Assembly: GCA_947629655.1 (NCBI GenBank)
Contig: CANREL010000004.1
Span: 13,577-77,576, forward strand
DNA: 64,000 nt
Direction of reading: 5' to 3'
DNA from: an uncultured Bacilli bacterium
GTDB lineage: Bacteria; Bacillota_I; Bacilli_A; RF39; UBA660
Position numbers and translations under genes: made by a program. Position 1 is the stretch's first letter. Every line of letters starts with the position of its first letter. Below are positions 14,538 through 61,086 of this stretch, piece after piece. The notes beneath the pieces were generated by a model, which saw only the letters and a program-made list of their open reading frames with translations, ran no database searches and was not told the origin of the DNA.

Positions 14538-14539
14538 TT

Positions 14540-41192: not shown

Positions 41193-41200
41193 GTGAAAAT

Positions 41201-43359: not shown

Positions 43360-43370
43360 GAAGTGATAAA

Positions 43371-45108: not shown

Positions 45109-45828
45109 ATGAGTGGACATTCAAAGTGGGCAACTATCCATAGAAAAAAAGGATTATTGGATGCTGAAAGAGGAAAGATTTTCCAAAAGATTGCTAAAGA
45201 ATTATACGTAGCTGCGAAAGGGACAAATGGTAATCCAGATGATAACCCCGGTTTGCGCTTAGTAGTTGAAAAGGCAAAGAGTAATAACATGCCTAAAGAC
45301 AACATTCAAAAAGCGATTGATAAAGCTGTTAAATCAGCTGGTGGTGAAGACTATGAATCAGTTAGATACGAGGGATATGGTCCAAATGGTGTCGCATTCA
45401 TGGTTGATTGCTTAACTGATAATCGCAATAGAACAGCGATGCTTGTCAGATCAACTTTTACTAAACGTGGTGGAAATCTTGGAACTGACGGATCTGTTTC
45501 ATACATGTTTGAAAGACGTGGGGTTATCGTCATCGATAAAACTCTTGAAGAAGATGAAGCAATGATGGTATGCCTAGATAATGGTGCAGATGATTTCATC
45601 GTCAATGATGACAGTTATGAAATATATACGACACCTGATGATTTCATCAAAGTAAAGACAGCTTTAGAAGAAAGTGGTGTCAAAGAGTTTTTAACTAGTG
45701 AGATTACATATGTAGCTAATAATTTAGTTGAACTTGATGAAGAAGCAACAGAAAGAGTCATGGCCTTAGCTGATGCTCTAGATGAAATTGATGACGTTCA
45801 AAACGTATATCATAATTTGAGTATTTAA
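45109..45828 (+). CDS. yebC: YebC/PmpR-family transcriptional regulator
   Basis: Canonical N-terminus MSGHSKWATIHRKK, with family-wide collinearity. Confidence 0.92.
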   Translation: MSGHSKWATIHRKKGLLDAERGKIFQKIAKELYVAAKGTNGNPDDNPGLRLVVEKAKSNNMPKDNIQKAIDKAVKSAGGEDYESVRYEGYGPNGVAFMVDCLTDNRNRTAMLVRSTFTKRGGNLGTDGSVSYMFERRGVIVIDKTLEEDEAMMVCLDNGADDFIVNDDSYEIYTTPDDFIKVKTALEESGVKEFLTSEITYVANNLVELDEEATERVMALADALDEIDDVQNVYHNLSI

Positions 45829-45851
45829 GTAGATTTATATCTACTTTTTTT
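45829..45851 (+). terminator. rho-independent terminator
   Basis: Hairpin gtagat/ttat/atctac followed by T7. Confidence 0.75.
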
Positions 45852-45877: not shown

Positions 45878-48800
45878 ATGAGCTATATAAAATCTTTTGA
45901 TGAAGAAGAATTTGAATCTTTAAAAGAGTATTGTCAAAAATATAGTTCTCAATATGGACTCAGTGCTCATGTCATGGAGTTATTAGATGAGAATGGACTT
46001 TATTATTTGAATAAATTTGTCAATGATGATGAAGATTTTGATGAACGTGATTTTGATACTTTAATAAGAGCTTTCTTTGATGGTTTTGATTTTTATTATG
46101 ATCGTTTAGATGATAATTATTTATTAGCGGCTAAAGAAAAATTAGAAGAGACTTTTTCATTCTTTGAAGATAGTCATTTAGATGATGAACACAAAAGTGA
46201 AATTGTCGATAATTTTTTTGAAATACTATCGAGTTATACGCGTGAAGAGTTGAGTGATAGTAAAGCTTTATACTATTTATTGACTTCTGATGTTTTTAGA
46301 AGGAGCAACATGGTTAAAGAATATTTGTACAATTCTTATAATTCGGTTGCTACTAGTAAAGAAAAGTTGGTCTTTTTTGTCAAAAATCTATATGATTTAT
46401 TGAACAAATTACCATATGAAGATGCTCACAAAGTCGATTATATATTTTTGAGTAGTTCTGATGCCTTCACTTATTTTTTAGATGTACCTGAAGAGATGAA
46501 TATCTTTTTTAATGAGAGAATTTTATCAAAATTTGGAAAAGAGACCTTGAGCTTTCTATTCAGAATGTCAGATTATTCTGTCTTCAGCAGTTTTTGTAGA
46601 TCTGATGATAAGTTTTTGTCTGTCGTAGCAGCTATGAATGAATACGTATTAAAAAAATATAATAAAAATTCTTATTTCTTTGATGGAGTTTTTAAATTTT
46701 TTAACAGATTTGAGAAAAAAGATATTAGAGCTAGAAAAATAATCATTGATCTATTCTCTGAATATTATGACAAATATTTTGAAGAAAGTAAAAAGAATGG
46801 TTTTGAAAACGATGAGATTTTTAATAATTTATTGGGATTAATTCTGCAACATCGTGATGTAATATATTTTTTGAATGAAAAAAATATTGAAAATTTAGAT
46901 GATTTCTTTAAAGCGACGAGAGAGAAAATAGATGAATTACACACGACTATATTTGGTAAGGAAGGTTTGGTCAAGTTTAAATATGGTGTCTTTGATCCAA
47001 AAAAAGATTTTCCACCTTTTGAGATGCGAGTACAGGGACTACACGATTTGAAAAATGCTTTCTTGCAAAGAGTTTATGGAATAACTTATGAAGATGCCTT
47101 TTATATCGCGTCAAAATATGGAACTTTTATCGAGCTATGTCAAGATGAAATAGCGGATGAAGATCGTGATGTTTATGAGATAGTTAAGACGATAACCGAT
47201 GTCGCTAATATGATTGATTACAATGGTAATAAAATAAATAATATTAGATTAGCTGCCCATGAATTTATTAAGAATAAGGGACTTTATAATTATAATAATG
47301 GGTCTTGTTATCCGATTCTATTATCATTGATTAATCGCATGTACATGCATGCATATAATGATTGTGTCTTTAAAGTTGATGAAAATTCTAAAGTTTTATA
47401 TCGTCAAAGAAAAGTTCCTGTAATTGATGCAGGAGTTAATTTCAACATGATTGTAAGTTCTATCAATGCTGTTGATGAGTTTTATACCAGTCGTGATAAC
47501 ATGATGGAGAAGTACAACATATCGAGTCGTTCCAATAATCAAGGAATTTGTGCAAGTTTTATCAATAATGAAAGTTTAGGAGTCATATCTTTACGCCAAC
47601 CATTAATTGGGTATGCCAATTTAGCTGATGACAGTTTGGATGCGATGGGAGTTGGTGATATATATTCCAAAACGATTGATTTAGATTTGTTGAGAGCTAA
47701 TTCTACAACTGGTGAGGGAAATTATTTCTTCACTCCTAAAAAATATATCGATTATACAAGATTTGGATATAACGAAATGGTCGTTGATCGCTTTTTGGTC
47801 AAAGATGATGACGATGCGATAAAAGTTCAACCGAGTTACATAGTTGTCTATAAAATAGATGACAATTATAAAAAGACTAGAATGTATAAAAAAGGAATAA
47901 GAATGGCTAGAGATTTTGGTGTTCCACTAGTCTTAGTTGACGTTCCAAAAGTTAAAGAAAATGAACGTGATATCATTCTTCAAAAAGAAAAAGAATTATT
48001 CAAAAGTAGTAAAGTCGATAAGGAATTATTAAATGAAATAGTAACGCGTTATATGAATAATTACAGTGGATCTTTAACGATTATGCGAAGTCGAAATCGC
48101 CGTGGAAATGAATGGCACTATCCAAAGGATTTCTCTGTGCGTGGTTTGACGAGATTTTTAGATAAAGTGGCTCGAAAGTTTGAAGATTTTGATGAAGCAC
48201 AAATAGAAGAGTGGAGTCAAGCTTTGAACGAAGTTTATAATTTAGAAAAAGAAAAGAACAAAATGGCTTTACAAATAAATGATTATGAGGATTCATTGAG
48301 TGGTGGAGAATTTTTACTCGATGATAAGATCATGTTTTCAGAATTTGTTCAAAATATCAAAGATCGCAATATCAATCGTCTTCTTCTCAGAAAGGGCATG
48401 TTTGATCAAGATAAATATTTACACATACCAGATGTCAAAGTACCAAGTGATGTCCAATTGATTGTCGATTTAGCAAACTTATTGTGTAAGAGTAAAGTTT
48501 ATGCCAATGTCAGTGGTCACAATGGGGAAAATATTTATCAGACGAAGAAGACTTATGATTATAGTGAAGAAGAAAAAAATGCTTATGGTCTCGTAATTTC
48601 TTATTTACTTGGGGACTATAGTACTAATTATTTTGCTAATCTCGATACTTGTGATATTACAAATATCAAAATTGATGAAAATATCCAACGCGTTGAGAGG
48701 TGCCTAGATGGCAATGATGCTTTTTCTAATCAGAATATCGATACAGAATTGTTATTAAAAGTTGCTACAGATATTGAAGATCTACCAACGGCAATCTTTT

Positions 48801-48958
48801 CTAAAGTGTTTAGACCATTCATTCAAGATTACAGTGCAAAGATGGGCGTTGCTCCAGATAAAGTACGCGATAATTTTCTTCGTAAGAAAGAACACATTTT
48901 TAGTGAGATGTCTAAATTTGCCCGTTCTGATAGAATTAATAAAGCAATTAGTAAATAA
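45878..48958 (+). CDS. large uncharacterised cytoplasmic protein, paralog A1 (1026 aa)
   Basis: RBS GGGTGGTGA. No signal peptide or TM helix. It has a helical N-terminal module, a conserved core (nt ~47410-48080) and a divergent C-terminal module, and is collinear with 53730-57098 and 57111-60092. Confidence 0.8.
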   Translation: MSYIKSFDEEEFESLKEYCQKYSSQYGLSAHVMELLDENGLYYLNKFVNDDEDFDERDFDTLIRAFFDGFDFYYDRLDDNYLLAAKEKLEETFSFFEDSHLDDEHKSEIVDNFFEILSSYTREELSDSKALYYLLTSDVFRRSNMVKEYLYNSYNSVATSKEKLVFFVKNLYDLLNKLPYEDAHKVDYIFLSSSDAFTYFLDVPEEMNIFFNERILSKFGKETLSFLFRMSDYSVFSSFCRSDDKFLSVVAAMNEYVLKKYNKNSYFFDGVFKFFNRFEKKDIRARKIIIDLFSEYYDKYFEESKKNGFENDEIFNNLLGLILQHRDVIYFLNEKNIENLDDFFKATREKIDELHTTIFGKEGLVKFKYGVFDPKKDFPPFEMRVQGLHDLKNAFLQRVYGITYEDAFYIASKYGTFIELCQDEIADEDRDVYEIVKTITDVANMIDYNGNKINNIRLAAHEFIKNKGLYNYNNGSCYPILLSLINRMYMHAYNDCVFKVDENSKVLYRQRKVPVIDAGVNFNMIVSSINAVDEFYTSRDNMMEKYNISSRSNNQGICASFINNESLGVISLRQPLIGYANLADDSLDAMGVGDIYSKTIDLDLLRANSTTGEGNYFFTPKKYIDYTRFGYNEMVVDRFLVKDDDDAIKVQPSYIVVYKIDDNYKKTRMYKKGIRMARDFGVPLVLVDVPKVKENERDIILQKEKELFKSSKVDKELLNEIVTRYMNNYSGSLTIMRSRNRRGNEWHYPKDFSVRGLTRFLDKVARKFEDFDEAQIEEWSQALNEVYNLEKEKNKMALQINDYEDSLSGGEFLLDDKIMFSEFVQNIKDRNINRLLLRKGMFDQDKYLHIPDVKVPSDVQLIVDLANLLCKSKVYANVSGHNGENIYQTKKTYDYSEEEKNAYGLVISYLLGDYSTNYFANLDTCDITNIKIDENIQRVERCLDGNDAFSNQNIDTELLLKVATDIEDLPTAIFSKVFRPFIQDYSAKMGVAPDKVRDNFLRKKEHIFSEMSKFARSDRINKAISK

Positions 48959-49017
48959 AAACTAAAGTGTAAATTAAAGTAAAATTGACGTAAAAACATT
49001 TTAGTTTTTTTTATTTT

Positions 49018-49026
49018 TGATAGAAT
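49018..49026 (+). promoter_or_regulatory. putative extended -10 element (TGaTAGAAT)
   Basis: Lies 32 nt upstream of the ATG at 49059. It is preceded by a weak large-loop hairpin and a T-run after the A1 stop. Confidence 0.35.
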
Positions 49027-49058
49027 GATAATATAGGAATATTAGGATAGGTGATTAT

Positions 49059-49877
49059 ATGGAAGATTTAGAAAAACTTGGAAAGTTTGAAACTTTACAT
49101 TTAGGTGGAACTGGTACTATGTACTTAGTACATGGGGAAACAAAAAATTACATTTATAAACCGGCTGAAAGTAAGTTCAGTCATCAAAAAGAACCTTTTA
49201 GAGGAATAGTTCAAGAATGTGCTTATGAATTACAAGAGATAGTTGATCCAGTTTCAGCGGTCGTATGTAGATATGTTGATGCGGGAAAGATTTGTGGATC
49301 TGTTCAGGAACTGATCGTCGTTGATAAAAATGCTCCTGACTATAGAGATATGCAATATGCTGGTCAAATACCTGAATTATCATCTTCAGAAGTTGATCAA
49401 TTCATGAGAGAATTTGTAACTGATTATTTATTGTACAATTATGATTCACACGGAAAAAATTTTATAACTGACCAACAGGGAATCATTAGAGGTATTGACA
49501 AAGAACAATCTTTTAGATACATGCGTGAAAAGAAAGCGCAAACACTTGATTTGTATTACTCACCTAATGCGGCTTATGGTGAAGCTGAACCAATATACAA
49601 TACTATTTTTAGAGCGTATCGCGATGGTAAATTAGACATTGATTACAGTGTCATCAGTGGATGCATGGATAGAGTTGAAGCAGTCAGTGAAGACAGATAT
49701 CGCGCCATATTCGCTCCTTATTGTGAAGCTTGTGGTAAAGCTTTTGGTCAAAATCCTAATGAGATGTTAGATCAGATTGTCGCAAGACGCAATACGATGC
49801 GTGAAAAAGTGGATACTTTCTTTCAGGGATTGACTGAGGAACGCGAAGTTAATTTGAGTTCAGGAAAGGGAAAATAA
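49059..49877 (+). CDS. minimal PI3K/PI4K-fold kinase (type II PI4K-like), substrate unknown
   Basis: Blocks are collinear with human PI4K2A as I recall it. GGTGTMYLV...IYKPAE matches GSSGSYFV...VFKPKNEE. GSVQELIVV matches GSFQLFVE. DYLLYNYDSHGKNFI matches DYIIRNTDRGNDNWLI. GIDKEQSF matches AIDNGLAF. Confidence 0.6.
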   Translation: MEDLEKLGKFETLHLGGTGTMYLVHGETKNYIYKPAESKFSHQKEPFRGIVQECAYELQEIVDPVSAVVCRYVDAGKICGSVQELIVVDKNAPDYRDMQYAGQIPELSSSEVDQFMREFVTDYLLYNYDSHGKNFITDQQGIIRGIDKEQSFRYMREKKAQTLDLYYSPNAAYGEAEPIYNTIFRAYRDGKLDIDYSVISGCMDRVEAVSEDRYRAIFAPYCEACGKAFGQNPNEMLDQIVARRNTMREKVDTFFQGLTEEREVNLSSGKGK

Positions 49878-49878
49878 T

Positions 49879-51147
49879 ATGTTAGATAGTGAGGATAAGA
49901 AGTATAATTTTCATTCTCATACTTTTAGATGTGGTCATGCTTCAAATCTTCCTGATTCCACTTATTTAAATGTGGCTTTAAATAACAACTATAATAAGTA
50001 TGGTATTACTGACCATGCGCCTGTTCATCCCATTTTTTATGGCGATTCCAAAATGCGCATGAATGATAGTGAGCGATATGAATATATAAATGCGATTAAC
50101 AATTTGAAAGTGATGTATGCTAAAGAACTAGAAGTCTTTTGCGGATTTGAAGCTGAGTATGACGAAATTATTGAAGAGTATCTATGCGATTTGCGCGATA
50201 GTGTCGATTACATGATTTTGGGACAACACTATGTCTTAAATAGAGATATTAGAAAAAGTCCCAATTATCCAATAGAGTATGCGAAAAAAGTTTGTAAAGG
50301 AATTGAGAGCGGTTTATTCGACATCGTTGCTCATCCTGATATCTTTATGAAATTTCGCACTTCTTTAAAAGATGATGATAGTAGAGAAACATTCATGAAA
50401 AATGCTTACTTAGCATCAAAAATGATTTGTGCTAAAGCAAAGGAATATAATGTACCGCTAGAATTAAATTTAGGAGGAGTCCACATCTTTCCTCGAAAGA
50501 GAATTGAAAGTTTAGATATTGCTCTACCAACTGATTTCTTTCAAGATGATGATGATATGGATTATATCGATTATCCAACAAATTTATTTTGGAATATAGC
50601 TATTGAAATGGGAAATAGTGCTGTCGTTGGAATCGATGCACATTTTCCAAATGAAATTGAAGATCGTGAAGAAAAATTAGAAAGAATTAATCGATATATT
50701 GATCTCTCTAAAATAAATTTTTTACCAAATTCTTATGATCCTGTTAAAGCACGTTTAAACAATCCCAAATTGGAAGAAGCATATCAAAAGACGAAGGACA
50801 GTTTAAATTCAGTTGAAGCGCGATTAATAGATGACATAGTTAGTAAGAGTCTTGAAAGTGATAAAGAAGTTAAGCGTCATTCTTTGGCAACACAAATATC
50901 ACGCAGTTTGAAGTCACCAACTCATATTAGAGCGGTTCCCTTTGGCAATGGTTTTCTAACTCAAGATCAAATATATGACGACATGACTAAAAGAAATAGA
51001 GATGAGTTAGCAATTGTCGCAAGAAATGGTATCATGAGAACAAAAAGTCGTGATAGTGATATTTTTAGAACAGAACTACTAAATGAAATAGATGCTTATT
51101 ACCGTCATCAAGAAGTTGTTAATAAAGAGATTAAAAAGAATAAATAA
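49879..51147 (+). CDS. PHP-domain phosphoesterase (HisJ/histidinol-phosphatase-like) with a ~130-aa C-terminal extension
   Basis: Metal-binding blocks FHSHTFRCGHA, GITDHAP, GFEAEY, ILGQHY, VAHPD and GIDAH. The ATG lies 1 nt after the kinase stop (TAAtATG). Confidence 0.8.
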   Translation: MLDSEDKKYNFHSHTFRCGHASNLPDSTYLNVALNNNYNKYGITDHAPVHPIFYGDSKMRMNDSERYEYINAINNLKVMYAKELEVFCGFEAEYDEIIEEYLCDLRDSVDYMILGQHYVLNRDIRKSPNYPIEYAKKVCKGIESGLFDIVAHPDIFMKFRTSLKDDDSRETFMKNAYLASKMICAKAKEYNVPLELNLGGVHIFPRKRIESLDIALPTDFFQDDDDMDYIDYPTNLFWNIAIEMGNSAVVGIDAHFPNEIEDREEKLERINRYIDLSKINFLPNSYDPVKARLNNPKLEEAYQKTKDSLNSVEARLIDDIVSKSLESDKEVKRHSLATQISRSLKSPTHIRAVPFGNGFLTQDQIYDDMTKRNRDELAIVARNGIMRTKSRDSDIFRTELLNEIDAYYRHQEVVNKEIKKNK

Positions 51148-51148
51148 T

Positions 51149-51180
51149 AAAGAGTAAAACTTGTTTTTACTCTTTTGTTT
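51149..51180 (+). terminator. rho-independent terminator
   Basis: Hairpin aaagagtaaaa/cttg/tttttactcttt followed by a T-rich tract. Confidence 0.7.
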
Positions 51181-51210
51181 TGATAAAATATTGTTAGAAT
51201 AAGATAGTGG

Positions 51211-52503
51211 GTGAAAAAGATGGTTAATGTGTCAAATAAAAAGATATTATCGCTAACGCTTAATGAACTTATTAATATATCTTTAGATGATACTTTAGTC
51301 ATGTTGAATAATGATTTGACCAAAGTGGATAAGTATAGTTCTGATTATGCTTTATCAATCGCATCAGCTATCGTAAAAAGAATATTTTTAATTAAGAATT
51401 TTGCCCATCAATATGATAAATTTTATAAAATAATAACTTCTAATGAATTTAGAAATAATAAATATATTTATAGTGCTTTAAAAGATGAAAATACAACGCT
51501 TAGTGATTTGTTAGACGTCTATGATGATGCTGAAGAATTGACTAGTCTCATCGATGCCATTCTCATGAAAAATGAAAAGATGTTTGATGAATTAGTCTAT
51601 GGTCAATACAATGTACGTGAATTGTTTTCTTTAGAATTTGTCAATAAATTTAATCATAATTCTTTTAAAAGAATTTTATCTTTTTTGTTGAAAGATAGTG
51701 ATAGAAAAAGAGTTGTTAAAGCTCTATTCAAAAATAAGAATAATAAATTCATATACATGGTATCAAAAATGGATGATGTCGTTTTACAATACAGTAAAGA
51801 TGATACGAGTTATTTAGATGCCGTTTTAGTCATGTTAAATTACAACAATTATCGTCATCTCTTATGGGATTATTACAATAAATATATTGGTAATATAGAA
51901 AATGAGAATCTTATGAACAGTCCAGAATATCGTAAAGAAGTACCTGATGAGTTAAAAGAATTATTAAATTATACTTTTGCACTGATGGATTATAAGTATT
52001 TAAATGACAAAGTTCCTGAGATAATATCTAGTATCGATGAGTTGATAAGTTCTTTAAATGAAGGAAAAGATATGGTTCATACTACTGTTTTTGGGGTCAG
52101 TGGTTATGAAAAGGTCAAGAATGAAAGTTTTGATATCTTATTTGATTTTCCAAAGATGGATGATGAAAATAAATTGTTGAATTTAAAGATTGCTTTTTTT
52201 AGTAATATATATGGTATAACTTATGATCAAGCAGGGAAAATAATTGATAATTTTGATGATTTTATGAAAGATTTTGATGGATCTTTTGATAAAAAAGATC
52301 AATTGATATATGAGACAGTGATAGCGATGAAGTCTTTATATGATTTAAAGTTAGATGATAAAGATGGAATTGATCTATATCGTGAAGTATATTATAAATA
52401 TGTTAAAAAGAATGGATTATATGCTCCCGTTGAGTTATCAGCGGCAATCATGATGGAAGAGTTGATGCATAGAATGTATGAGAATTCTATAGAAATAATC
52501 TAG
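51211..52503 (+). CDS. paralog A4: N-terminal module only (430 aa) of the large protein family
   Basis: Collinear with the N-terminal ~500 aa of A1-A3 (for example TTVFGVSGYEKVKN...NIYGITYDQAGKII...YKYVKKNGLY...LMHRMYENS). It ends just before the position of the conserved core. The start is GTG 51211 or ATG 51220. Confidence 0.75.
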   Translation: MKKMVNVSNKKILSLTLNELINISLDDTLVMLNNDLTKVDKYSSDYALSIASAIVKRIFLIKNFAHQYDKFYKIITSNEFRNNKYIYSALKDENTTLSDLLDVYDDAEELTSLIDAILMKNEKMFDELVYGQYNVRELFSLEFVNKFNHNSFKRILSFLLKDSDRKRVVKALFKNKNNKFIYMVSKMDDVVLQYSKDDTSYLDAVLVMLNYNNYRHLLWDYYNKYIGNIENENLMNSPEYRKEVPDELKELLNYTFALMDYKYLNDKVPEIISSIDELISSLNEGKDMVHTTVFGVSGYEKVKNESFDILFDFPKMDDENKLLNLKIAFFSNIYGITYDQAGKIIDNFDDFMKDFDGSFDKKDQLIYETVIAMKSLYDLKLDDKDGIDLYREVYYKYVKKNGLYAPVELSAAIMMEELMHRMYENSIEII

Positions 52504-52537
52504 TTTTATGTGATAGAATGTTATTAGGAGGTCTACT

Positions 52538-53641
52538 ATGAGTGAAATTTATAAAGACAATGAAAGAGTAGATGAAAGAGAAGCAGAAAAGAATTCTATT
52601 TTGGATGATTACTTAAAAGACGTTGGGCCAATTTCAAAATTTATTAATGAGGGCTTTGAAGAGATTGATAGGGATCTTGGCGTTCAAGATGGTGTTTTAG
52701 GATTTGCGGTAGGAGATGCTTTGGGTGTCCCTGTTGAATTTTCAAGACGTGAAACTTTGATAGATAGACCAGTTGTTGATATGATGGAGTATGGTGTTCA
52801 CAATCAACCAAAGGGAACTTGGAGTGATGATACTTCAATGATGATTGCTACAATGGATGCCATTATCAATAGTTCAAAGATTGATTATCACAAGATAGCT
52901 GATAATTTTTGCCTTTGGGCTAGCAGTAGAAAGTTTAATCCTCATGGTAAATTGTTTGACATTGGAATTACGACGAGTGATGCTCTTAAGCGTTACATGT
53001 TTGAAGGATGTGAGCCTACAAAAGCTGGCAATAAAGGTTATTATGACAATGGTAATGGTTCACTAATGCGCATTTTACCTTTGGCATATTACTTTAATAG
53101 TAATAAGATGTCCGATGAAGAGATGGCTACTATCATCAATAATGTCTCATCAATAACGCATGCTCATCCAATCAGTTGTATGGGATGTTATCTATACGTA
53201 AAATATGCCATGGATTTATTAGATGGAAAAGATTTCAATGAGGCTTATCAAGATCTACTAAGATGTGATGTATCAATGTATGATAATGATACAGTCAAAG
53301 CTTATGGTCGTATTTTAAGTGGTGAACTTGGACAAATAAAGGATCAAAATAAGATTAAATCTAGTGGCTTTGTCGTCGATTCTTTAGAGGCATCTATTTG
53401 GTGTTGCTTAAATAGTGATAATTATAAAGTTGCGACTTTGAAAGCTGTCAATCTTGGCGATGATACCGATACGGTTGGAGGATTGACAGGAGGATTAGCG
53501 GGTATTAAATATGGACGTGAAAGTATTCCTAAGAATTGGGTCGATTCTTTAGCACAAAAAGATTATTTAGTCGAGTTGTGTGATGAATATCAAAAAACGA
53601 TAAAAAAAACAGCAAATTTGAATAAAATTAGACATGTTTAA
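52538..53641 (+). CDS. ADP-ribosylglycohydrolase (ARH/DraG family) with a ~47-aa N-terminal leader
   Basis: Motifs GFAVGDALGVPVEF, WSDDTSM, GNGSLMR and LGDDTDTVGGLTGGLAG, so the metal-binding acidic residues are present. RBS AGGAGG. Confidence 0.9.
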   Translation: MSEIYKDNERVDEREAEKNSILDDYLKDVGPISKFINEGFEEIDRDLGVQDGVLGFAVGDALGVPVEFSRRETLIDRPVVDMMEYGVHNQPKGTWSDDTSMMIATMDAIINSSKIDYHKIADNFCLWASSRKFNPHGKLFDIGITTSDALKRYMFEGCEPTKAGNKGYYDNGNGSLMRILPLAYYFNSNKMSDEEMATIINNVSSITHAHPISCMGCYLYVKYAMDLLDGKDFNEAYQDLLRCDVSMYDNDTVKAYGRILSGELGQIKDQNKIKSSGFVVDSLEASIWCCLNSDNYKVATLKAVNLGDDTDTVGGLTGGLAGIKYGRESIPKNWVDSLAQKDYLVELCDEYQKTIKKTANLNKIRHV

Positions 53642-53673
53642 AGAAAAAGTGTTATCATTTTTTCTTTTTTTTT
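53641..53673 (+). terminator. possible rho-independent terminator (A/U-rich stem)
   Basis: Hairpin aagaaaaa/10-nt loop/tttttctt followed by a T-run. Confidence 0.4.
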
Positions 53674-53701
53674 GACCTTGGTCATCAATATTTGTTACAA
53701 T
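53672..53701 (+). promoter_or_regulatory. putative sigma-A promoter of the A2-A3-ORF70 unit
   Basis: TTGACC, an 18-nt spacer and TACAAT, located 28 nt upstream of the ATG at 53730. Confidence 0.5.
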
Positions 53702-53729
53702 TATATTAGAATAGGATAGGTGTGGTAAC

Positions 53730-56700
53730 ATGGATGATCAAAGTATTGATAATGATTCTTTCTTGGAAGAAGATGATTTATATAGTGCAGTTGTAAACTC
53801 AGATGAAGAATTCGATGATGAGGATTTAGAAGATACACTTGATTTAGGTCTCTTTTCTAAAAATGATATGGACGAATCACCTAGTTTTGACGATGAAGAA
53901 GACTTACCGGAATTAGATAGTGATACTTTAAATGATCCTTTTCAAGATCCCTTTGATTCATCTTTGAGTAAAAGTTTCTTTCCACAGATGCAGGCCGTTT
54001 TAAAAAAGAGTGAAGCTATTGCTGTTAAACCAAGTATTTTAGATAAAAAAATTGTTGAATTAGAATCTATTCCCATTCAGGAATTGAGTGAAAAATTACT
54101 TGAAGAGATTAGAAGTTTAGAAAGTGAGACACCAGAATTTAGAAATGCACAATTACAAAGTATTTTTTCAAGAATATTAGAATTTCAACCAGTCAATAAG
54201 GCCGGTTCAACAAATGATTCGCATTTTGAAAAATATGAACAGAGATTGTTTACTGATCTAGTAAGTGCGATTGGCCTTTCCGATATCGATTTTGTCAAAG
54301 ACTTTTTAAAGTCAAGTTTTAAGTACGGCGGAAATAGTAGTAAAGTTCAACAGCGAAAATTATTATTACAAGTATTCGATTATTATGATACTCATTCTGA
54401 AGATGCCATTGAAAAATTCAATTACATATTTAGAAGTAGTGAAGCTATAGGTATAATGTTACTTGATGAACCAGAACTTTTAAAGACGCAATATTTTTCT
54501 AATCGTGTCATGGAACTATTTAGTAAAGAAAGTTTATCGCAACTTTATAGATTTAAATTTGTGATGGGTTATCAAGAGTTGGAGAATTTAGTCAAAGAAG
54601 AAAATGCTAAAGCTCTTTTTGTCGTTTCCCAAATGTGTAATTATAGTACCAATGTCATCGGTCATGATTTTGAATTCATGTCAGCTGTTTTTAAACAAAT
54701 TTCAACAAATCCAAAATTTTTTCAGTTGTTGAGTGATTCTTATGATTCTTTAGTTCATGGTGATGAAAAAGCTCATATGGCCAAAAAGGAATTAGAACCC
54801 GAATTTCGTAAATTGATGAATTATATATTGAATCAGTCATATGATAAAAGAGCGCTTGGTAGAAGTGACCATAGTAATATTTCAACACTTGCTGATTTTA
54901 TGAAATATGTTTCTAAACAGAGTGAAGAATTTCATGATTATGTCGTTAGACCTGGTACTTTATCAAAGATAGAAGATGAAACTTTTGATCCTGAAAATGA
55001 TTTCTTGAAAATTACTGATAAACAAGATTTACAAAATTTTAAACGTGGTATATTGATGGGAATTTATGGTATAAGTTTTGAAGAAGCTAAACATTACGTA
55101 TCACAATATGGTCAATACATGGAAGCTTTGGAAAAAGGAATTGTCGATGAAGATAAAGAAATTCTTCAGGTTTTAAAATCCATATGTTCAATTGTCAAAC
55201 TAGATGAAACTGATCAAAATTTTGAATCAAAAATTAGTCAGTTACAAACTGCTTATGCATATCAGATTAAGAAAAATGGACCTTATTTCCAAGATAAATA
55301 CGTTTCGACGATGATTCTTCAAGGTTTATTCAATAGAATGATAATGAATACTTATAACAAGAGAAATCTTTTAGCTTCCAGTTGTGAAGAACTTGGACGT
55401 GATGACGATGTAGTCTTGTTGGATGCGGGATATGATTTTGATATGGTAGTAACGTCTTTTAGTGGCGTTGAGAGTTTTTATCAATCTGGAGTTAATATGG
55501 CTAGTAAGTGGAATACGGCAGCTCTATCAGAAGGTCAAGGTCTTTGTGTATCACATATTTCTTCTCAAAATTTAGGAGTAATTTCTTTACAATCTCCAAT
55601 TATTGGATTTAGTAAGATTCCACAATACGCTTTAGATAGTATGGGACCAAATGATATATTCACTAATATCTCCAGTTATAATTTGCGCATGTTAAATGAA
55701 AATCGTGGTCGTGTTCAAAATCGTTTTTTCATTCCAGCTAATGTCATGTCTGATGAACAGCGATATGGTTATAATGAGATTTTGCTTGAAAGATTTTTAT
55801 CACAAGATGAAAAAGGCGATATCAAAATACAACCTAGTTATGTGGTATGTTATAAGATGAATGAAAATTATAAACAGTCTTTAAATTATAAACAATCTTT
55901 GAAAGTAGCTAAAGACTTTGGCATTCCAATGGTTGTCGTCGATGTCATGAAGATTAAGGAAAAAGAACAAAGTATCATCGAAGAACAACAACAACAATTG
56001 TTGAGTAGTGAAAAAGTCGATCTTGCAATGATGCATGATATTGTGACGCGATATATGAATAATTATACGGGATCTTTGACCATGTGTTGGGAGAATCAAT
56101 CTGATTGGCGCTATAGAGAAGATTTCTCAGTACCGGGAATGCGTAATTTTTTTGATGAAGTATTTCGAAAAATTTCCAGTATTGATGATGAAAATTTACA
56201 AAAAGAGTGGTTGGATGCTTTAGAATTCGCTTATCGTGATGAAAAGAGAAAGAATGATTCTGCTCATAAAGTTAGCAGTTATAAAGGATCAGTTCGAGGA
56301 TTTATTTTTGATCGTGATATGGAGAGTGGTGGATTTGATCTGTTGACTAGAATTACTGATGCAAGAAATGGAAAGTTCACTTATGCAAGCGAAGTGTATG
56401 TGGAAGATGAACCAACTGCTGATTTAGGTATTGTAACGCAAGTTAAAGTTACTAAAGTCATGTTATCGGATGGTGTCACAGAAGGTATTTTTGTCACTCC
56501 ACAAGAACTTAAAGAGGAAGATATTGCCATTATCAGTCTAACTAATGCGATGGAGATGGGTTCAACTTTTGACCTTGAAGATTATTCTCTAAATGGAGTT
56601 GATGGTTTTGCCATAAAATATAATGAGGTAGAAGATCAAGATGTTGTCGCAGCTGAAAATTTAGTCGTAAGTTATCTATTTGCCAATTTTGAAAGTGCCT

Positions 56701-57098
56701 TTATTGAAGATGTAGGTTTTGATCTCGGTAAGAAAGTGGCTGATGAATATGAATTGAATTTGGAACCAAACTATGACGTCACCTACAAATTTGATAACTC
56801 ATTATATAGTTCGGTATTCAATAAGAATTCGGAGAATCATCTCGATTTCAACCACGATATAATGGATAAGTACATCACTAAGATAGAGACGATGGACGAT
56901 AAAGATTTCTTAAAGATATTTACGCCAGTAATAGATAAAAAAGCAAGTGCTCTACAAAAGAGTCAAGAAGAGATAGGTGCCATTCTATTGGATCGCAAAG
57001 CCAATATTCGTTCACAATTCAACAACTTAGAACAGCACATCGCTATTGTTAATGGTGAAGCAGTAGACGTTATCAGTGATCATTTATCAACAAAGTAA
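53730..57098 (+). CDS. large uncharacterised cytoplasmic protein, paralog A2 (1122 aa) with an acidic N-terminal tail
   Basis: The first ~80 aa are D/E-rich. The rest is collinear with A1 and A3. The conserved core lies at nt ~55410-56085. Confidence 0.8.
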   Translation: MDDQSIDNDSFLEEDDLYSAVVNSDEEFDDEDLEDTLDLGLFSKNDMDESPSFDDEEDLPELDSDTLNDPFQDPFDSSLSKSFFPQMQAVLKKSEAIAVKPSILDKKIVELESIPIQELSEKLLEEIRSLESETPEFRNAQLQSIFSRILEFQPVNKAGSTNDSHFEKYEQRLFTDLVSAIGLSDIDFVKDFLKSSFKYGGNSSKVQQRKLLLQVFDYYDTHSEDAIEKFNYIFRSSEAIGIMLLDEPELLKTQYFSNRVMELFSKESLSQLYRFKFVMGYQELENLVKEENAKALFVVSQMCNYSTNVIGHDFEFMSAVFKQISTNPKFFQLLSDSYDSLVHGDEKAHMAKKELEPEFRKLMNYILNQSYDKRALGRSDHSNISTLADFMKYVSKQSEEFHDYVVRPGTLSKIEDETFDPENDFLKITDKQDLQNFKRGILMGIYGISFEEAKHYVSQYGQYMEALEKGIVDEDKEILQVLKSICSIVKLDETDQNFESKISQLQTAYAYQIKKNGPYFQDKYVSTMILQGLFNRMIMNTYNKRNLLASSCEELGRDDDVVLLDAGYDFDMVVTSFSGVESFYQSGVNMASKWNTAALSEGQGLCVSHISSQNLGVISLQSPIIGFSKIPQYALDSMGPNDIFTNISSYNLRMLNENRGRVQNRFFIPANVMSDEQRYGYNEILLERFLSQDEKGDIKIQPSYVVCYKMNENYKQSLNYKQSLKVAKDFGIPMVVVDVMKIKEKEQSIIEEQQQQLLSSEKVDLAMMHDIVTRYMNNYTGSLTMCWENQSDWRYREDFSVPGMRNFFDEVFRKISSIDDENLQKEWLDALEFAYRDEKRKNDSAHKVSSYKGSVRGFIFDRDMESGGFDLLTRITDARNGKFTYASEVYVEDEPTADLGIVTQVKVTKVMLSDGVTEGIFVTPQELKEEDIAIISLTNAMEMGSTFDLEDYSLNGVDGFAIKYNEVEDQDVVAAENLVVSYLFANFESAFIEDVGFDLGKKVADEYELNLEPNYDVTYKFDNSLYSSVFNKNSENHLDFNHDIMDKYITKIETMDDKDFLKIFTPVIDKKASALQKSQEEIGAILLDRKANIRSQFNNLEQHIAIVNGEAVDVISDHLSTK

Positions 57099-57110
57099 GG
57101 GGAGATTTGA

Positions 57111-60092
57111 ATGGAAAAGAAAACAGAAGAAATTGTCCTAAAGAAAAATTTTATGCCATCGATGAGTATGGTATTCGGTTTTCTAAGTCAAAATAAATTT
57201 ATCAATATGTCGATTAATAAGATGGAAGAGAAAGATATTGAAGAAGTTAGAGCGATTCTTTTGAATGATGTCAAAGAGTTAAAAGACAAAAATCAAGCTG
57301 TCCAAAAACAACAACTTCAAAAAATTTTTTCCAAGATCTTTGCTCTTCAACCATATCTCAATCAACGATTAAAAGATAGAAGTTTGCGAAGTACAGAGCA
57401 GCGCCTATATGCTGATCTAATTTTGACACCTGGTTTATTCGATCTCGATTACGTCGATAATTTTATTAGAAATGATTTTGTCAATAATGAGAAAAATCGT
57501 TTTAAATATGAATCTTTGATTGAAATATTAGATTATCGAAAAGGTTTATCAGATGAATCACGAGAAAAATTTGATTATTGTTATCGCAGTAGTGTTAAAT
57601 TTGCTAATTCTTTAATAAATAATCCAAATATAATTAGTCATTTACTAACGGAAAGAAATTTACAAATGTTTAGTAAAGAAACATTGTCACACATTTTTAG
57701 ATTTTTAAATTCTGGTGAAGATATCTCTAATTTATTTGCTGAAGAAAATAGTAAAGTATTATTTATCTTTTCACAGATGTGTGATGCTGTATATAAAAAA
57801 GTTGGACATGAAAGCGAAGTATTAGATGCCGGTTATCGAATGTTGAGAGATGCCGATTTTAAAGAAATTCTAAATGACTATTATGACAAATATGTTGGTA
57901 GTCAAGATAATGAAAATGACTTTAAAAAAAGAGTTGGTTTGGCTAATTCAGTTGAAATGCAAGAACTCTTTAATTACATGGTTACTCAAGGCTATAATTT
58001 CAGTTATGGTTCTAAAACTTTTTCTGATATTCATACCATAGAAGAATTTATGAATTTCGTAAGAGAAGAAAGAGAAAATAATCATATTGTTGTATTTGGA
58101 AAAGAGAATTATGAAAGAATAAAAAATGGTCATTTGGATGATGATATAACTTTTAAAAAGATAACAGATGAAGATGAGTTAAAAGAGTTTAAAAAAGCTG
58201 TTTTAGAAAATATATATGGAATCAATACATTTGAAGCAAGTCACATCACTAGAACTTATGGAAATTATTTAGAGGAGTTACAGAAATGTCTCAATGAAAA
58301 TGATAAAGTTACTTTTGAAATATTGGAAGCGATTGTCAAGATTGATAAAATGGAACTCGATAATGAAGATGATATCAAACACATTCAAAGAGCTTATTGG
58401 AAATATGTTAAAGAAAAAGGTTTGGATCATCGAAAAGAATATTCTTCAATTTTAGTATTAGATGGATTGTTAAACAGAATGTATATGAATACATATAGTG
58501 ATATTTTGTTTGATGAAAAAGATAAGAGAACTATTAGAGTTGATGATGGTGTACCAGTAATTGATGCGGGAGTCGAATTCAACATGATCGTCACTGCTTT
58601 AAATGGAGCACAAAAGTTTTTACAAAGAGGCGTTAACATTGCCAGTAAATGGAATACAGCTATGATGGAAGATAGACAGGGATTGTGTGCTTCTTTTATC
58701 AATAATTCCAATTTGGGAACAATTACTCTTAATGGTCCTTTATTAGGATTTAAAAATTTGCCCAAAGATTGTTTGAATGCGATGGGTACTACTGATATAT
58801 ATACGACTCCAGGATCTTTCAACTTGCGTTATTACAATCGAAGTCATACACTTTTTGTACCGGGACCAAATTTAGCTGATGAGACCCGATATGGTTACAA
58901 TGAGATGTTGTTAGATAGATTTTTATCAAAAGATGAAGACAATCAATTAAAACTTCAACCGGATTATGTCATCTATTACAAGACAGAAGAACCTTATCAG
59001 ACTAGTATGCGTTATGAAATGTGTTTAAAGACCGCTAAAGAATTTGGAATACCATTAGTTGTCGTCGACTATGAAAAAATCAAGAAAAATGAAAAAAAAG
59101 TTATCCATGAAATGGAACAAGAATTATTTTCAAAAGAAGAAGTTAATAAAGATTTATTAGTAGATATAATGAGTAGATATATGAACAATATCAGTGGAAC
59201 TAGAACGATTCATGGACCTACTAAATTTGGTGGTTTACACGTCAAAGATGAAGATACTTTTCCAACTGGTGATTTAAGAATTTTTATCAATGATGTGGAA
59301 CGTAGATGTGAATATATAACTGATGCAGAAAAGAAGGAAAAATGGATCGAGGCTTTTGAAGCAGCTTATGAAAATGAACAGCGAAAACATTTTGTAGCGG
59401 TCAGTGTCAATTCATATAATTGTTCAATTGGCGCTGATAAAGTTGAATTTATGTTGATGAGTGAATATGATGTTGGAAATCGCATAAAACGCTTGAAAAA
59501 AGTAGAAGAAGAAACAATAGAAGAAGAGGGAATATTTTATAAATCAAGAGATGTTCCTGGGGATATGGATGCTCTTTGTCTATTATCCAATGCTTTAGAT
59601 TTCAATACGCAGTACGACATTGTTGAAAAATACAATGATGAAGGAGAATATGGATATTATTATCAAGTAAAAAAGAATAGTAAAGAACCTAGTATTGAAG
59701 AAAAGTTAATCGTTTCTTATCTAACTGATAATTATGATACAGATTTATTGAAAGAGATGCACGATGATATCAAGACTAAAAATGTTAAATTCAATATTCC
59801 TGATAATAGGAATTTAACTGAACATGTAATGTCTTCACCAATATTTAGTAATGTTCAATATGATCAAAATAAACTAGATGGTATCATTGAAAAAATAGAA
59901 AAGATGAATGAAAAAGATTTTATCAACTTATTTGGAGCACATATTGTAGATAAATCTGATAAATATCACATAGATGTTGATACTGTTGCTTATGAGATAT
60001 CGCTTAAAAAGAGTAGTATTCGTGAAGATTTTAACAATTTGAATAATTTTATTAATAAAGGTTCAGAAGAAATAGTAGTGAAAGGAAAGTAG
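57111..60092 (+). CDS. large uncharacterised cytoplasmic protein, paralog A3 (993 aa)
   Basis: Starts 12 nt after A2, behind AGGGGAG. The conserved core lies at nt ~58548-59210. Confidence 0.8.
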   Translation: MEKKTEEIVLKKNFMPSMSMVFGFLSQNKFINMSINKMEEKDIEEVRAILLNDVKELKDKNQAVQKQQLQKIFSKIFALQPYLNQRLKDRSLRSTEQRLYADLILTPGLFDLDYVDNFIRNDFVNNEKNRFKYESLIEILDYRKGLSDESREKFDYCYRSSVKFANSLINNPNIISHLLTERNLQMFSKETLSHIFRFLNSGEDISNLFAEENSKVLFIFSQMCDAVYKKVGHESEVLDAGYRMLRDADFKEILNDYYDKYVGSQDNENDFKKRVGLANSVEMQELFNYMVTQGYNFSYGSKTFSDIHTIEEFMNFVREERENNHIVVFGKENYERIKNGHLDDDITFKKITDEDELKEFKKAVLENIYGINTFEASHITRTYGNYLEELQKCLNENDKVTFEILEAIVKIDKMELDNEDDIKHIQRAYWKYVKEKGLDHRKEYSSILVLDGLLNRMYMNTYSDILFDEKDKRTIRVDDGVPVIDAGVEFNMIVTALNGAQKFLQRGVNIASKWNTAMMEDRQGLCASFINNSNLGTITLNGPLLGFKNLPKDCLNAMGTTDIYTTPGSFNLRYYNRSHTLFVPGPNLADETRYGYNEMLLDRFLSKDEDNQLKLQPDYVIYYKTEEPYQTSMRYEMCLKTAKEFGIPLVVVDYEKIKKNEKKVIHEMEQELFSKEEVNKDLLVDIMSRYMNNISGTRTIHGPTKFGGLHVKDEDTFPTGDLRIFINDVERRCEYITDAEKKEKWIEAFEAAYENEQRKHFVAVSVNSYNCSIGADKVEFMLMSEYDVGNRIKRLKKVEEETIEEEGIFYKSRDVPGDMDALCLLSNALDFNTQYDIVEKYNDEGEYGYYYQVKKNSKEPSIEEKLIVSYLTDNYDTDLLKEMHDDIKTKNVKFNIPDNRNLTEHVMSSPIFSNVQYDQNKLDGIIEKIEKMNEKDFINLFGAHIVDKSDKYHIDVDTVAYEISLKKSSIREDFNNLNNFINKGSEEIVVKGK

Positions 60093-60096
60093 AGAG

Positions 60097-60309
60097 ATGA
60101 AAGCAAGTGAATTGAGAAGAATTGTTGAAGAAAAAAAGGGTGTTAACAATGAGAGAAGTACTAGTAGTATTTCTAATTTAGATGATGATTATGGAAGTTA
60201 TCATGAGACTATTCTCAATAATTATTTAGAGGATGTCGGTGCTATTTCTAAATATATTAATGATGGATTAAAAGAAGTAGAAAAAAATAAGAATTTACCA
60301 AACGTTTAG
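60097..60309 (+). CDS. 70-aa protein homologous to the N-terminal leader of the ADP-ribosylglycohydrolase
   Basis: ATG lies 4 nt after the A3 stop and has an AGGAAAG RBS. TILNNYLEDVGAISKYINDGLKEVEKN aligns with ARH SILDDYLKDVGPISKFINEGFEEIDRD (14/27 identical, the rest mostly conservative). Confidence 0.6.
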   Translation: MKASELRRIVEEKKGVNNERSTSSISNLDDDYGSYHETILNNYLEDVGAISKYINDGLKEVEKNKNLPNV

Positions 60310-60334
60310 AAGAAAACATTTTTGTTTTCTTTTA
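60310..60334 (+). terminator. rho-independent terminator
   Basis: Hairpin agaaaaca/tttt/tgttttct followed by a T-rich tract. Confidence 0.7.
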
Positions 60335-60375: not shown

Positions 60376-61086
60376 ATGGAACTAAAATATAAGAGAATTT
60401 TAATCAAGTTGAGTGGTGAAAGTTTAGCTGGTAAGATTGGACATGGCATAGATTTTGATAGAACTTTGGAAATTTGTAGTGAAATAAAGAAAGTTAGTGA
60501 TTTAGGTGTAGAAGTAGCTATCGTAGTTGGTGGTGGTAACTTCTGGCGTGGTCGTAGCAATATGCATATGGACAGATGTACATCTGATTATATTGGGATG
60601 CTTGGAACGACGATGAATGCTTTAGCGCTTGGTGATGCTTTTAAACAATTAGGACAAGATGTCAGAGTTCAAACGGGAGTTGAAATGCGCCAAATTGCAG
60701 AGTTTTATATCAAGAATAGAGCTGATCGTCATTTGAGTAAGGGAAGAGTTGTAATTTTTGGTTGTGGTACTGGTAGTCCTTTCTTCTCAACTGATACAGC
60801 AGCTGCTCTAAGAAGTGCGGAGATAGGAGCTGATGCGGTTTTAAAGGCCACGAATGTCAGTGGTATTTACACAGCTGATCCAAAGAAAGATGCTAATGCA
60901 ACGATGATTGATGAGATAACTTATATGGAAGTTCTAAATAAAAAATTAAATGTCATGGATTCGACAGCGATGACTCTATGCATGGATAATGATATTCCAA
61001 TAGTAGTGTTCAACATAAATGAAAAAGGAAATCTTTTAAAATTGATTGAAGGAGAGAAAATAGGGACAGTAGTAAGTAATAAGTAG
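60376..61086 (+). CDS. pyrH: UMP kinase
   Basis: Motifs [21 protein letters not shown] and [13 protein letters not shown]. Confidence 0.92.

Follow-up and report, generated by a model that had tools for sequence, protein, structure and literature searches.

Which common function, if any, joins eight genes that stand side by side between two housekeeping genes of an uncultured gut bacterium? The question is raised by a stretch of 64,000 nucleotides (hereafter the window) from an uncultured Bacilli bacterium, which has a GC content of about 30% and carries almost every long open reading frame (ORF) on the plus strand. At positions 45878-60309, eight ORFs, all in plus orientation, are placed between a gene for a YebC/TACO1 protein (yebC, 45109-45828), the upstream flank, and a gene of the amino-acid-kinase family in the position of pyrH (60376-61086), the downstream flank. 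This block encodes four paralogs of a large protein, here termed A1, A2, A3 and A430, together with a kinase-like protein, a PHP-family phosphoesterase, an ADP-ribosylglycohydrolase of the DraG/ARH family (ARH) and a small protein (orf70). Eight co-directional and tightly packed genes had already been described here in an earlier note made from the sequence alone, and all ORFs were found in place. Our results show that the genes of the block belong together, since their synteny is retained in five genomes and since fusions connect the A core with the kinase, the A core with HD phosphohydrolase domains, the kinase with HD domains, and the kinase with ADP-ribosyltransferase (ART) domains. Furthermore, a theme of conflict by ADP-ribosylation and phosphotransfer emerges, because kinase homologs occur in phage MuF or minor-capsid proteins that also carry ARTs and because the ARH is nearest to Lmo0067 and Tri1. 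In the best explanation at hand, the block is centred on taking off ADP-ribose and phosphate, not on adding them; tentatively, and with somewhat less than even confidence, we read it as a vertically inherited, clade-specific, cytoplasmic host conflict module of uncultured gut Bacilli that would reverse ADP-ribosylation or phosphorylation imposed from outside.

Related loci were obtained from GTDB species genomes (six loci, from uncultured Bacilli or Bacillota metagenome-assembled genomes (MAGs) of goat rectum, rabbit and other samples) and from metagenome assemblies (six loci); a further metagenome scan returned just two short loci. The order yebC-A1-kinase-(PHP)-(A430)-(ARH)-A2(xN)-A3-orf70-pyrH was found in five of five genomes covering the yebC side, and the interleaved arrangement is kept across genomes together with its tight spacing, including overlaps of 1-12 nt. 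Orthologs of A1 follow yebC in four other genomes (34-44% identity), PHP orthologs are present in three of four related loci (about 50% identity), and A430 orthologs occur in L008, L009 and L011 with 48-59% identity. Some modules are missing from individual genomes (PHP and ARH from L008, A430 from L010), and the number of A2-type copies varies from one to five, some relatives having four or five. In a neighbour-joining tree, the A proteins cluster by position and not by genome, with clades for A1, A2, A3 and A430 and an expansion in the A2 type only. This grouping by position identifies the four types as ancient orthologous groups. DNA repeats between the A copies of the window reach no more than 72% identity over the two longest (122 and 47 nt), so that recent gene conversion is not apparent. 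Between the orf70 ortholog and pyrH, relatives usually carry an ABC transporter, and in L009 (SIG201 MAG) an additional 272-aa ORF (3752-4570), which does not match any window protein, lies between yebC and A1.

The block changes at a different pace from its surroundings. Measured against the orthologs in the goat-rectum MAG, yebC and pyrH are 90% and 88% identical, followed by the kinase (62%), ARH (61%), A430 (59%) and PHP (50%), and then by A1 (44%), A3 and orf70 (43% each) and A2 (36%). The TadA-type ATPase encoded farther upstream shows 83-90% identity in L008-L010, the three other genomes covering that gene. The A proteins diverge several-fold faster than the products of the neighbouring genes. 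Rapid divergence, changes in copy number and loss of modules are the usual marks of conflict genes, with relaxed constraint as the alternative, and the locus as a whole is vertically inherited between housekeeping genes.

Fusion proteins extend the linkage beyond gene order. The 1257-aa protein P0063 combines an A core (residues 559-968) with a complete kinase (residues 1001-1254; 1e-54) whose motifs are intact, and at least 10 of 36 remote A-core proteins end in an HD phosphohydrolase domain. P0235 joins an HD domain and a kinase, and P0217 an ADP-ribosyltransferase and a kinase. The C-termini of A-core proteins thus vary between an HD domain, a full kinase, a kinase tail and none of these. 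The wider signal is a network of domains comprising the A core, the kinase, HD or PHP, ART and MuF. Chance adjacency of the block genes is unlikely in view of these fusions. A number of short pieces were also observed: behind the genes for P0217 and P0235, short ORFs (L018, 2188-2526; L019, 11415-11657) supply the C-terminal tail that the kinase domain lacks there, and a 252-aa fragment of an A protein in L005 (9237-9992) carries the same tail. Frameshifts in the assemblies or split genes probably account for these pieces.

The link to phages is provided by the kinase. Its gene (49059..49877) encodes a stand-alone protein of 272 aa, in which an alignment of orthologs reveals the motifs GGTGxMY, YKPA, DYLLxNxDxHGxNF and RG(I/V)DKEQSF. 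The glycine-rich loop, the lysine of YKPA, the DxHxxN loop and a subsequent aspartate are invariant among the orthologs; in detail, D129, H131, N134 and D147 are invariant in five of them and are kept in homologs fused to MuF, ART and HD domains. These features are shared with PI3/PI4 kinases and with HipA-type kinases, but the protein scores below every Pfam threshold. HipA_C matched the window kinase on its catalytic loop (0.016, 15.3 bits, cut-off 30.5) and PI3_PI4_kinase matched the homolog P0223 at the same site (1e-3, 19.3 bits, cut-off 27.1); no Pfam match above the gathering threshold and no sequence match in the PDB were obtained. Matches to Bcl-xL and calpain were short, weak and biologically implausible, and were treated as chance. 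The earlier note had listed three enzymes with intact motifs: the catalytic residues are indeed present in PHP, ARH and kinase, whereas the label "PI4K type II-like" given to the kinase rests on these sub-threshold matches. Homologs of the kinase fall into 62 clusters, ART and HD fusions among them.

A scan of IMG/VR recovered 51 viral contigs (GC 47-63%; L024-L074) with a copy of the kinase that is 39-44% identical, and in those contigs whose ORFs were examined this copy forms part of a larger protein of about 1100 aa. An example is the product of L028 6942-10361, which consists of Phage_Mu_F (142-307) and kinase (about 353-600) and is encoded right after the terminase and portal genes. In the mycobacteriophages McProf and Onyinye, the kinase-like region stands next to an ART: McProf gp54 (L078, 2579-6136) contains a VG15 N-domain, a kinase-like region (about 474-731) and ADPrib_exo_Tox (4.7e-16), and Onyinye gp16 (L079, 2266-6288) a kinase-like region (about 245-448) and ADPrib_exo_Tox (6.6e-8). 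GenBank names these proteins "Minor capsid and ADP-ribosyltransferase domain fusion" and "ADP-ribosyltransferase", which leaves the kinase-like region unannotated. Among phage MuF or minor-capsid proteins, the kinase is common as an internal domain and often shares its polypeptide with ADPrib_exo_Tox. A role as capsid cargo that is injected along with the phage DNA has been proposed for MuF proteins with variable enzymatic C-termini (PMC5576092), and large polyvalent proteins with several effector domains are a recognised class in phages and conjugative elements (PMC5512222). The block proteins resemble both classes in being large, multidomain and without signal peptides, and their kinase family is the internal domain that such phage proteins carry by terminase and portal genes and together with ARTs; in contrast to them, none of the block proteins has a MuF or head-packaging domain. 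The kinase family may be undescribed, because the MuF paper contains no mention of kinase domains and because the kinase clade of polyvalent proteins is described without the C-terminal subdomain which the present family possesses and shares with the A proteins.

This shared subdomain leads to the A proteins. A1 (1026 aa, 45878..48958), A2 (1122 aa, 53730..57098) and A3 (993 aa, 57111..60092) represent the first-, middle- and last-position types, and the paralogy noticed earlier is borne out by BLASTP between A1 and A2 (5e-107) and between A2 and A3 (8e-174, along the full length). A430 (430 aa, 51211..52503) comprises only the helical N-terminal region of the family; it aligns with residues 25-461 of A3, the N-terminal half (7e-33), and stops just short of the alpha/beta core. 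The same note had taken A430 for a truncated copy and, like orf70, for an orphan fragment. This had to be given up, as both are conserved in relatives at the same positions (48-59% and about 40% identity, respectively). In A1, a helical N-region, the alpha/beta A core and a helical linker are followed by a C-terminus resembling the kinase tail (residues 953-1017, window 48734-48928; kinase hidden Markov model (HMM) 7e-5). A2 begins with an acidic disordered N-terminus and carries, after the A core, the longest kinase-like C-terminal region of the A proteins (residues 1003-1105, window 56736-57044; kinase HMM 2.4e-15). In A3, the AlphaFold layout begins with a helical N-region (30-465), continues with the alpha/beta core (about 470-655 in this layout; given more broadly as about 470-700, window 58518-59210) and a linker of helices, and ends in a C-terminal region of mixed structure, with homology to the kinase tail in residues 914-985 (window 59850-60065; E 3e-5). 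The full-length AlphaFold2 model of A3 has a predicted local distance difference test score (pLDDT) of 76, and that of the A core, based on an alignment of 26 sequences, a pLDDT of 80 and a predicted template-modelling score of 0.81.

Thus, in A1, A2, A3 and most close relatives, the last 70-100 residues share homology with the helical subdomain at the C-terminus of the kinase. The BLASTP alignment of A2 with MuF-kinases even reaches the catalytic-loop region, in which the catalytic residues are replaced. Therefore, the A proteins look like descendants of an A-core-kinase fusion with a decayed kinase, the active copy of which would have been kept as a separate gene. Apart from this tail, the family is undescribed: the full-length match to a characterised family that would have contradicted the earlier note was sought and did not appear, and its statement that the A proteins have no known domain holds for the databases, though not for the C-terminal 70-100 residues with their kinase homology. 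A1, A2, A3 and A430 gave no match in Pfam, NCBIfam, PADLOC or PHROGs, and Pfam searches of 26 core sequences at E<=10 yielded no family in more than one member. PDB sequence searches with A3 and with the 26-sequence core profile returned noise only, and Foldseek searches of the A models against the PDB returned nothing beyond generic helical repeats (best E 0.93). Among 5.8 billion proteins, a word-indexed search with A3 found 16 matches, all unnamed. An A-family profile of 18 sequences detected 625 proteins at E<=1e-3 among 1.84 billion cluster representatives (clustered at 50% identity). About 50 of them are full-length relatives; the others share the middle only (profile positions about 350-770), with the core lying within cytoplasmic proteins of 400-2200 aa whose source organisms are AT-rich. 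The A core defines a wider unannotated family, without a Pfam model or a structural neighbour.

Across this family, down to relatives with about 20% identity, a set of polar residues is kept which, in A3 numbering, comprises N515, C526, S528, D562, R593, N597, E598, R603, Y619, D653, K656, E661, N692 and N693, with E598 being invariant. This set looks like an active site and not like a scaffold. Q523, G524 and C526 are invariant in the close A family; in the alignment of remote A-core members, Q523 falls below the 70% conservation cut-off and the consensus at that motif is HGIC. A reading of the A proteins as pseudoenzymes, suggested by the loss of histidines in HGIC and RHTHNE, was dropped, since these histidines are poorly conserved in remote members too and since A1-A3 retain the conserved polar set. 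The position of N597-E598 at the start of a strand loosely recalls the catalytic glutamate of ARTs, a resemblance which we take to be speculative.

The remaining two enzymes, PHP and ARH, represent the sole Pfam domains across the eight proteins (PHP and ADP_ribosyl_GH), and both look intact, with metal and catalytic motifs visible in sequence and alignments. The PHP protein (422 aa, 49879..51147) matches Pfam PHP with 34.8 bits against a cut-off of 26.4 (2.7e-8). It is HisJ-like in its N-terminal 200 residues, its likeness to histidinol phosphatases being confined to the first 165, followed by a C-terminal extension of about 200 aa without a match. Its nearest solved structure is the histidinol phosphatase 2yxo (4.8e-10). 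HisJ-family models of NCBIfam score 55-75 bits against cut-offs of 90-202, and these scores, far below the equivalog cut-offs, argue against a simple role in the histidine pathway. Protein phosphatases of Gram-positive bacteria occur among the PHP-family enzymes.

The ARH (367 aa, 52538..53641; Pfam ADP_ribosyl_GH 8.9e-67) is nearest in solved structure to Lmo0067 of Listeria (8za7, 2.4e-79), followed by Tri1 of Serratia (6dre, 1.9e-39). With 182 bits against the Tri1 equivalog of NCBIfam (cut-off 490) and 132 bits against DraG (cut-off 337), it is a member of the family and an ortholog of neither. Its N-terminal leader of about 50 aa (window 52538-52690) contains YLxDVGPISxxINEGF, and residues 20-46 recur in orf70, which encodes 70 aa at 60097..60309, starting 4 nt past the stop of A3 (BLASTP 4e-9, 52% identity). 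The description of this ORF as a copy of the ARH leader was therefore accurate. In every related locus covering that point, an ortholog of orf70 (63-69 aa, about 40% identity) comes directly after the last A gene. The motif YLxDVGPISxYINEGFxEI is common to the ARH leader, the orf70 orthologs and a separate 71-aa ORF ahead of ARH in L011, the goat-rectum MAG, where this leader ORF (8387-8602) overlaps a 325-aa ARH (8580-9557) by 23 nt. The separate ORF is either a real split gene or an assembly frameshift.

No description of this gene set was found in the literature searched. The closest template is a predicted group of systems centred on an ADP-ribosylglycohydrolase (ARG) and directed against viral ADP-ribosylation, in which the ARG is accompanied by a phosphatase and an enzyme-like partner, no ART is found nearby, and evolution is rapid with variable modules (PMC9503650, section 3.8; Iyer, Burroughs, Anantharaman, Aravind 2022). 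The block fits this template in four respects. An ADP-ribosylglycohydrolase is tightly coupled to a phosphatase, though one of another family; neither the eight proteins nor the flanks gave an ART or SIR2 match in Pfam, a cryptic ART in the unmatched A core being conceivable; the locus evolves fast around a conserved core, with modules gained and lost between close genomes; and a protein whose conserved polar residues hint at an enzyme is present, the A proteins here and there the partner named ARPP, which has conserved Cys and Gln residues and a beta-meander with an inserted barrel (PMC9503650). This agreement favours a conflict module. On the other hand, the phosphatases of the ARG-centric systems are of the rhodanese-phosphatase, calcineurin-like, HD or HAD type, while that of the block is a PHP protein, with HD found on remote A-core proteins. 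The published systems can include a Nudix- or WYL-HTH regulator, vWA, SseB and TY chaperones, none of which is in the block, and they are hosted by actinobacteria, planctomycetes and proteobacteria instead of uncultured low-GC Bacilli. In addition, the block is dominated by a kinase and three to five large A paralogs, unlike the ARG-centric systems, which are themselves only predicted.

A second point of comparison is Tre1-Tri1 of the Serratia type VI secretion system (T6SS). Tri1 is an immunity protein whose N-terminal extension occludes the ART toxin and whose ARH activity removes ADP-ribose (PMC8120803). The ARH of the block is likewise DraG-like with an N-terminal extension, and Tri1 and Lmo0067 are its nearest solved relatives. 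The extension is a separable module, found as a stand-alone ORF in L011 and as orf70, and its binding to a partner is putative. However, no adjacent R-S-E ART toxin and no genes of a T6SS or type VII secretion system (T7SS) were found at the block. Polymorphic toxins differ in a further respect, as the block proteins possess no N-terminal trafficking or secretion domain, judging from the lack of such a Pfam domain and of a hydrophobic N-terminus. The SidE/SidJ/Dup circuit of Legionella is alike in logic only: there too, tandem large paralogs are interleaved with a kinase-fold gene, and ADP-ribose chemistry is combined with reversal enzymes and with a phosphodiesterase, which is HD-like in Legionella and PHP or HD in the present case. 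No kinship of sequence or fold to the block exists, no ART or deubiquitinase domain was found here, and the block proteins are apparently not secreted effectors of an intracellular pathogen.

As a conflict module, the block might work as follows; we infer every mechanistic step beyond the linkage of the genes and an ADP-ribose and phosphate chemistry in a conflict-like regime. The ARH would strip ADP-ribose from host molecules on which an outside enzyme has placed it, the likeliest source being an ART or ART-kinase effector injected by a phage. PHP may process the released ADP-ribose or phospho-adducts and would take the role of the HD domain present in cis in distant A-core proteins. The A proteins would serve as fast-diversifying recognition and enzymatic parts, in which the variable helical N-region might bind the target or the intruder, the conserved alpha/beta core with its invariant polar set is probably catalytic, and the C-terminal kinase tail may dock or regulate the stand-alone kinase. 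The 25-residue module YLxDVGPISxYINEGF of ARH and orf70 is a candidate docking or inhibitory peptide that could tie the ARH to an A protein, in the way the Tri1 extension acts on its partner. A bolder version, which we regard as rather improbable, makes the A core an undescribed enzyme fold acting on ADP-ribose- or phosphoribose-linked substrates; together with the kinase, PHP or HD, and a peptide-tethered ARH, it would constitute a new modification and de-modification system, with the same kinase domain being a phage-side weapon packaged in capsids with ARTs. Such a system would resemble the SidE/SidJ/Dup circuit or anti-ART immunity in logic and not in ancestry.

Several observations weigh against a conflict module. 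The paralog types, ancient and at fixed positions, would also suit a multi-subunit cellular machine. The chromosomal site is fixed in every relative and there is no recognisable defence island, and none of the eight proteins had a match at E<=0.1 in PADLOC-DB v2. A Nudix or WYL regulator, which about 42% of the published ARG-centric systems possess, was not found in the block or its flanks, the upstream gene being that for YebC/TACO1. All synteny evidence comes from one clade and hence amounts to one evolutionary observation. Remote A-core genes are single or tandem, chromosomal, and surrounded by ordinary genes; neither a kinase nor an orf70-type ORF lies near them in nine loci outside the clade, and the precomputed Pfam gene tables contain no ARH or PHP in their vicinity. 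The eight-gene set is therefore specific to one clade. The co-occurrence across genomes that the earlier note had proposed as a check was thus seen as synteny within the clade and as fusions to kinase and HD domains, whereas the nine remote loci without ARH or kinase neighbours weaken the set as an obligatory unit, with fusions to kinase or HD replacing adjacency there. Finally, no biochemical function can be assigned to the A core, the role of which is conjecture because neither a sequence nor a fold match was found; a cryptic ART fold in the A proteins is speculation, the comparison of the core with the ART-kinase protein P0217 by hhalign giving a probability of only 0.1.

Among the rival explanations, a lineage-specific housekeeping machinery is somewhat unlikely. 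The A paralogs would be subunits of a cytoplasmic structure or complex, linked for instance to the envelope or to cell division, and would be regulated by reversible phosphorylation through kinase and PHP and by ADP-ribosylation through an ART encoded elsewhere and reversed by ARH, as in DraT/DraG. The fixed site between yebC and pyrH without mobile-element genes, the three ancient paralog types and the conserved N-domain-only gene in fixed order, and the cytoplasmic nature of all block proteins agree with this explanation, as does the position of remote homologs next to murF-ddl, mraY-ftsW and truB, the window itself having an abhydrolase-murF-ddl group about 11.6 kb upstream. Yet the A proteins vary in copy number and diverge much faster than the flanking housekeeping genes, L008 can do without PHP and ARH, the kinase family outside the clade is found overwhelmingly in phage head proteins and ART fusions, and the A family is confined to AT-rich uncultured lineages. 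Mere accumulation of an expanded A family beside three unrelated enzymes in a compact genome is very improbable. Co-orientation is uninformative here, as all window genes are co-directional, and the lack of ARH, kinase or PHP neighbours at remote A-core genes and the single-clade origin of the synteny would be expected under such fortuitous adjacency; against it stand the independent fusions that join the A core to kinase or HD domains and the kinase to HD or ART domains, the subdomain common to A proteins and kinase, the recurrence of the ARH peptide module in orf70, coupled to A3, and the interleaved order with its conserved spacing and overlaps.

A self-contained toxin-immunity or effector-immunity locus, which we consider unlikely, would cast the A proteins as cryptic ART-like or other toxins, the ARH as a bifunctional immunity protein of the Tri1 type and orf70 as leader-only immunity for A3, with kinase and PHP modulating or adding toxic activities and delivery, if any, by another route. 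Such a locus is suggested by the proximity of the ARH to Lmo0067 and Tri1, as lmo0066, the neighbour of lmo0067 by locus tag, has been described as homologous to the T7SS toxin EsaD, within the T7SS region of Listeria (PMC5417603), by an N-terminal extension like that on Tri1 (PMC8120803), and by the place of orf70 directly after A3, a typical position of immunity genes. The variable C-terminal domain of A-core proteins, small unrelated same-strand ORFs behind five of seven remote A-core genes and one remote homolog among the conjugative-element genes PcfJ, PcfK and SSB point in the same direction. What speaks against toxins and immunity proteins is the negligible hhalign score of the core against P0217, the lack of signal peptides and of LXG, WXG, MuF, PAAR or Rhs modules in the block proteins, the absence of T6SS and T7SS genes from the 64-kb window, and the outcome of searches of IMG/VR and PLSDB, in which the patterns available retrieved no A-core gene. 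The paralog types are moreover ancient and position-fixed instead of forming shuffled cassettes, and recent recombination between copies is not seen. Of the two possibilities between which the earlier note did not choose, a reversible modification system based on nucleotides or ADP-ribose and a polymorphic effector-immunity or defence-type locus, the linkage of the genes and a conflict theme of ADP-ribose and phosphotransfer were retained, while the classical polymorphic-toxin form was not, in view of the missing trafficking domains and signals, the ancient paralog groups at fixed positions and the vertical inheritance.

If the block is indeed a host conflict module, it would be a Gram-positive, PHP-based and kinase-containing version of the so far only predicted systems that undo virus-imposed ADP-ribosylation. 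It would then also make this idea accessible to tests, as the counterpart on the phage side is defined, namely the MuF or minor-capsid kinase with its ART, of which McProf and Onyinye are cultivable examples among the mycobacteriophages. Whichever explanation applies, three elements are new: an unannotated protein family of 625 representatives with an enzyme-like alpha/beta core, a likewise unannotated kinase family that phage heads commonly carry as a cargo domain and that is a frequent partner of ARTs, and a short peptide module on ARH and a stand-alone ORF that suggests a transferable device for docking or inhibition. The fusion network and the link to phage MuF-kinase-ART proteins make the hypotheses directly testable.

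The edges of the block are marked by two hairpins on the plus strand, each followed by a U-run. The AT-rich hairpin after yebC (45829..45851; -7.4 kcal/mol, z -3.1) forms the upstream edge and that before pyrH (60310..60334; -11.5 kcal/mol, z -5.05) the downstream edge. Both are more stable than shuffled sequences and are probably terminators, in agreement with what had been proposed for these sites. A consensus terminator scan, which needs at least three GC pairs, missed both because they are too AT-rich, and an Rfam scan of window positions 40000-64000 found no RNA family. None of the eight proteins has a hydrophobic stretch of the signal-peptide or transmembrane type, as had been predicted: the maximal Kyte-Doolittle mean over 19 residues is at most 1.33, compared with 2.6-3.3 in neighbouring membrane proteins. 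Likewise, the Pfam scan of block and flanks confirmed that integrase, transposase or recombinase domains are missing, and no phage genes were seen in the block.

Several side observations concern the surroundings of remote relatives. A-core genes follow truB in L012 and L075, murF-ddl in L020 and L021, and mraY-ftsW in L022. In L013 (7988-11949), the A-core gene for P0085 lies beside PcfJ, PcfK, SSB and DUF3846, which are typical of Gram-positive conjugative elements, with an HD-domain gene 1.5 kb upstream. The small same-strand ORFs (29-83 aa) behind remote A-core genes, located within 30 nt or overlapping, are those of L013 (5397-5648), L017 (2111-2302), L022 (9030-9224), L016 (12129-12218) and L015 (8982-9077); no likeness to one another or to orf70 was detectable. 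The trio of alpha/beta-hydrolase, murF and ddl found upstream of the block (window 30680-34286) recurs in another Bacilli genome (L020, 4324-12096), where it is directly followed by the A-core and HD protein P0111, and in a third genome (L023, 3260-6767) near a stand-alone kinase homolog, the 819-aa neighbour of which is not an A-core protein. This recurrence could reflect shared regional ancestry or coincidence.

Directly upstream of yebC and on the same strand as the block, a Tad/Flp-type pilus locus extends over window positions 35542-45097. A 911-aa protein encoded there (35542-38277) combines an N-terminal methylation (pilin) motif with Listeria-Bacteroides repeats; the other products are a TadE/G-like protein (40407-41192), an ATPase of the ParA/TadZ kind (41201-41974), a TadA-type T2SSE ATPase (41974-43359) and two T2SSF proteins (43371-45097). 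The order tadA-tadB-tadC-yebC-A1 is kept in related genomes. The gene after pyrH (61098-61664) encodes 188 aa with a strongly hydrophobic segment, without a Pfam match and without any sign of the usual frr. The next gene (61700-62731) encodes a protein with a signal peptide that carries cohesin and cadherin-like domains. As the related genome L012 encodes a papain-like protease bearing a dockerin (12406-14610), these Bacilli seem to use cohesin-dockerin assemblies. At the other end of the window (47-2821), a YfhO membrane protein of 924 aa is fused to a GtrA-like domain and is unrelated to the block.

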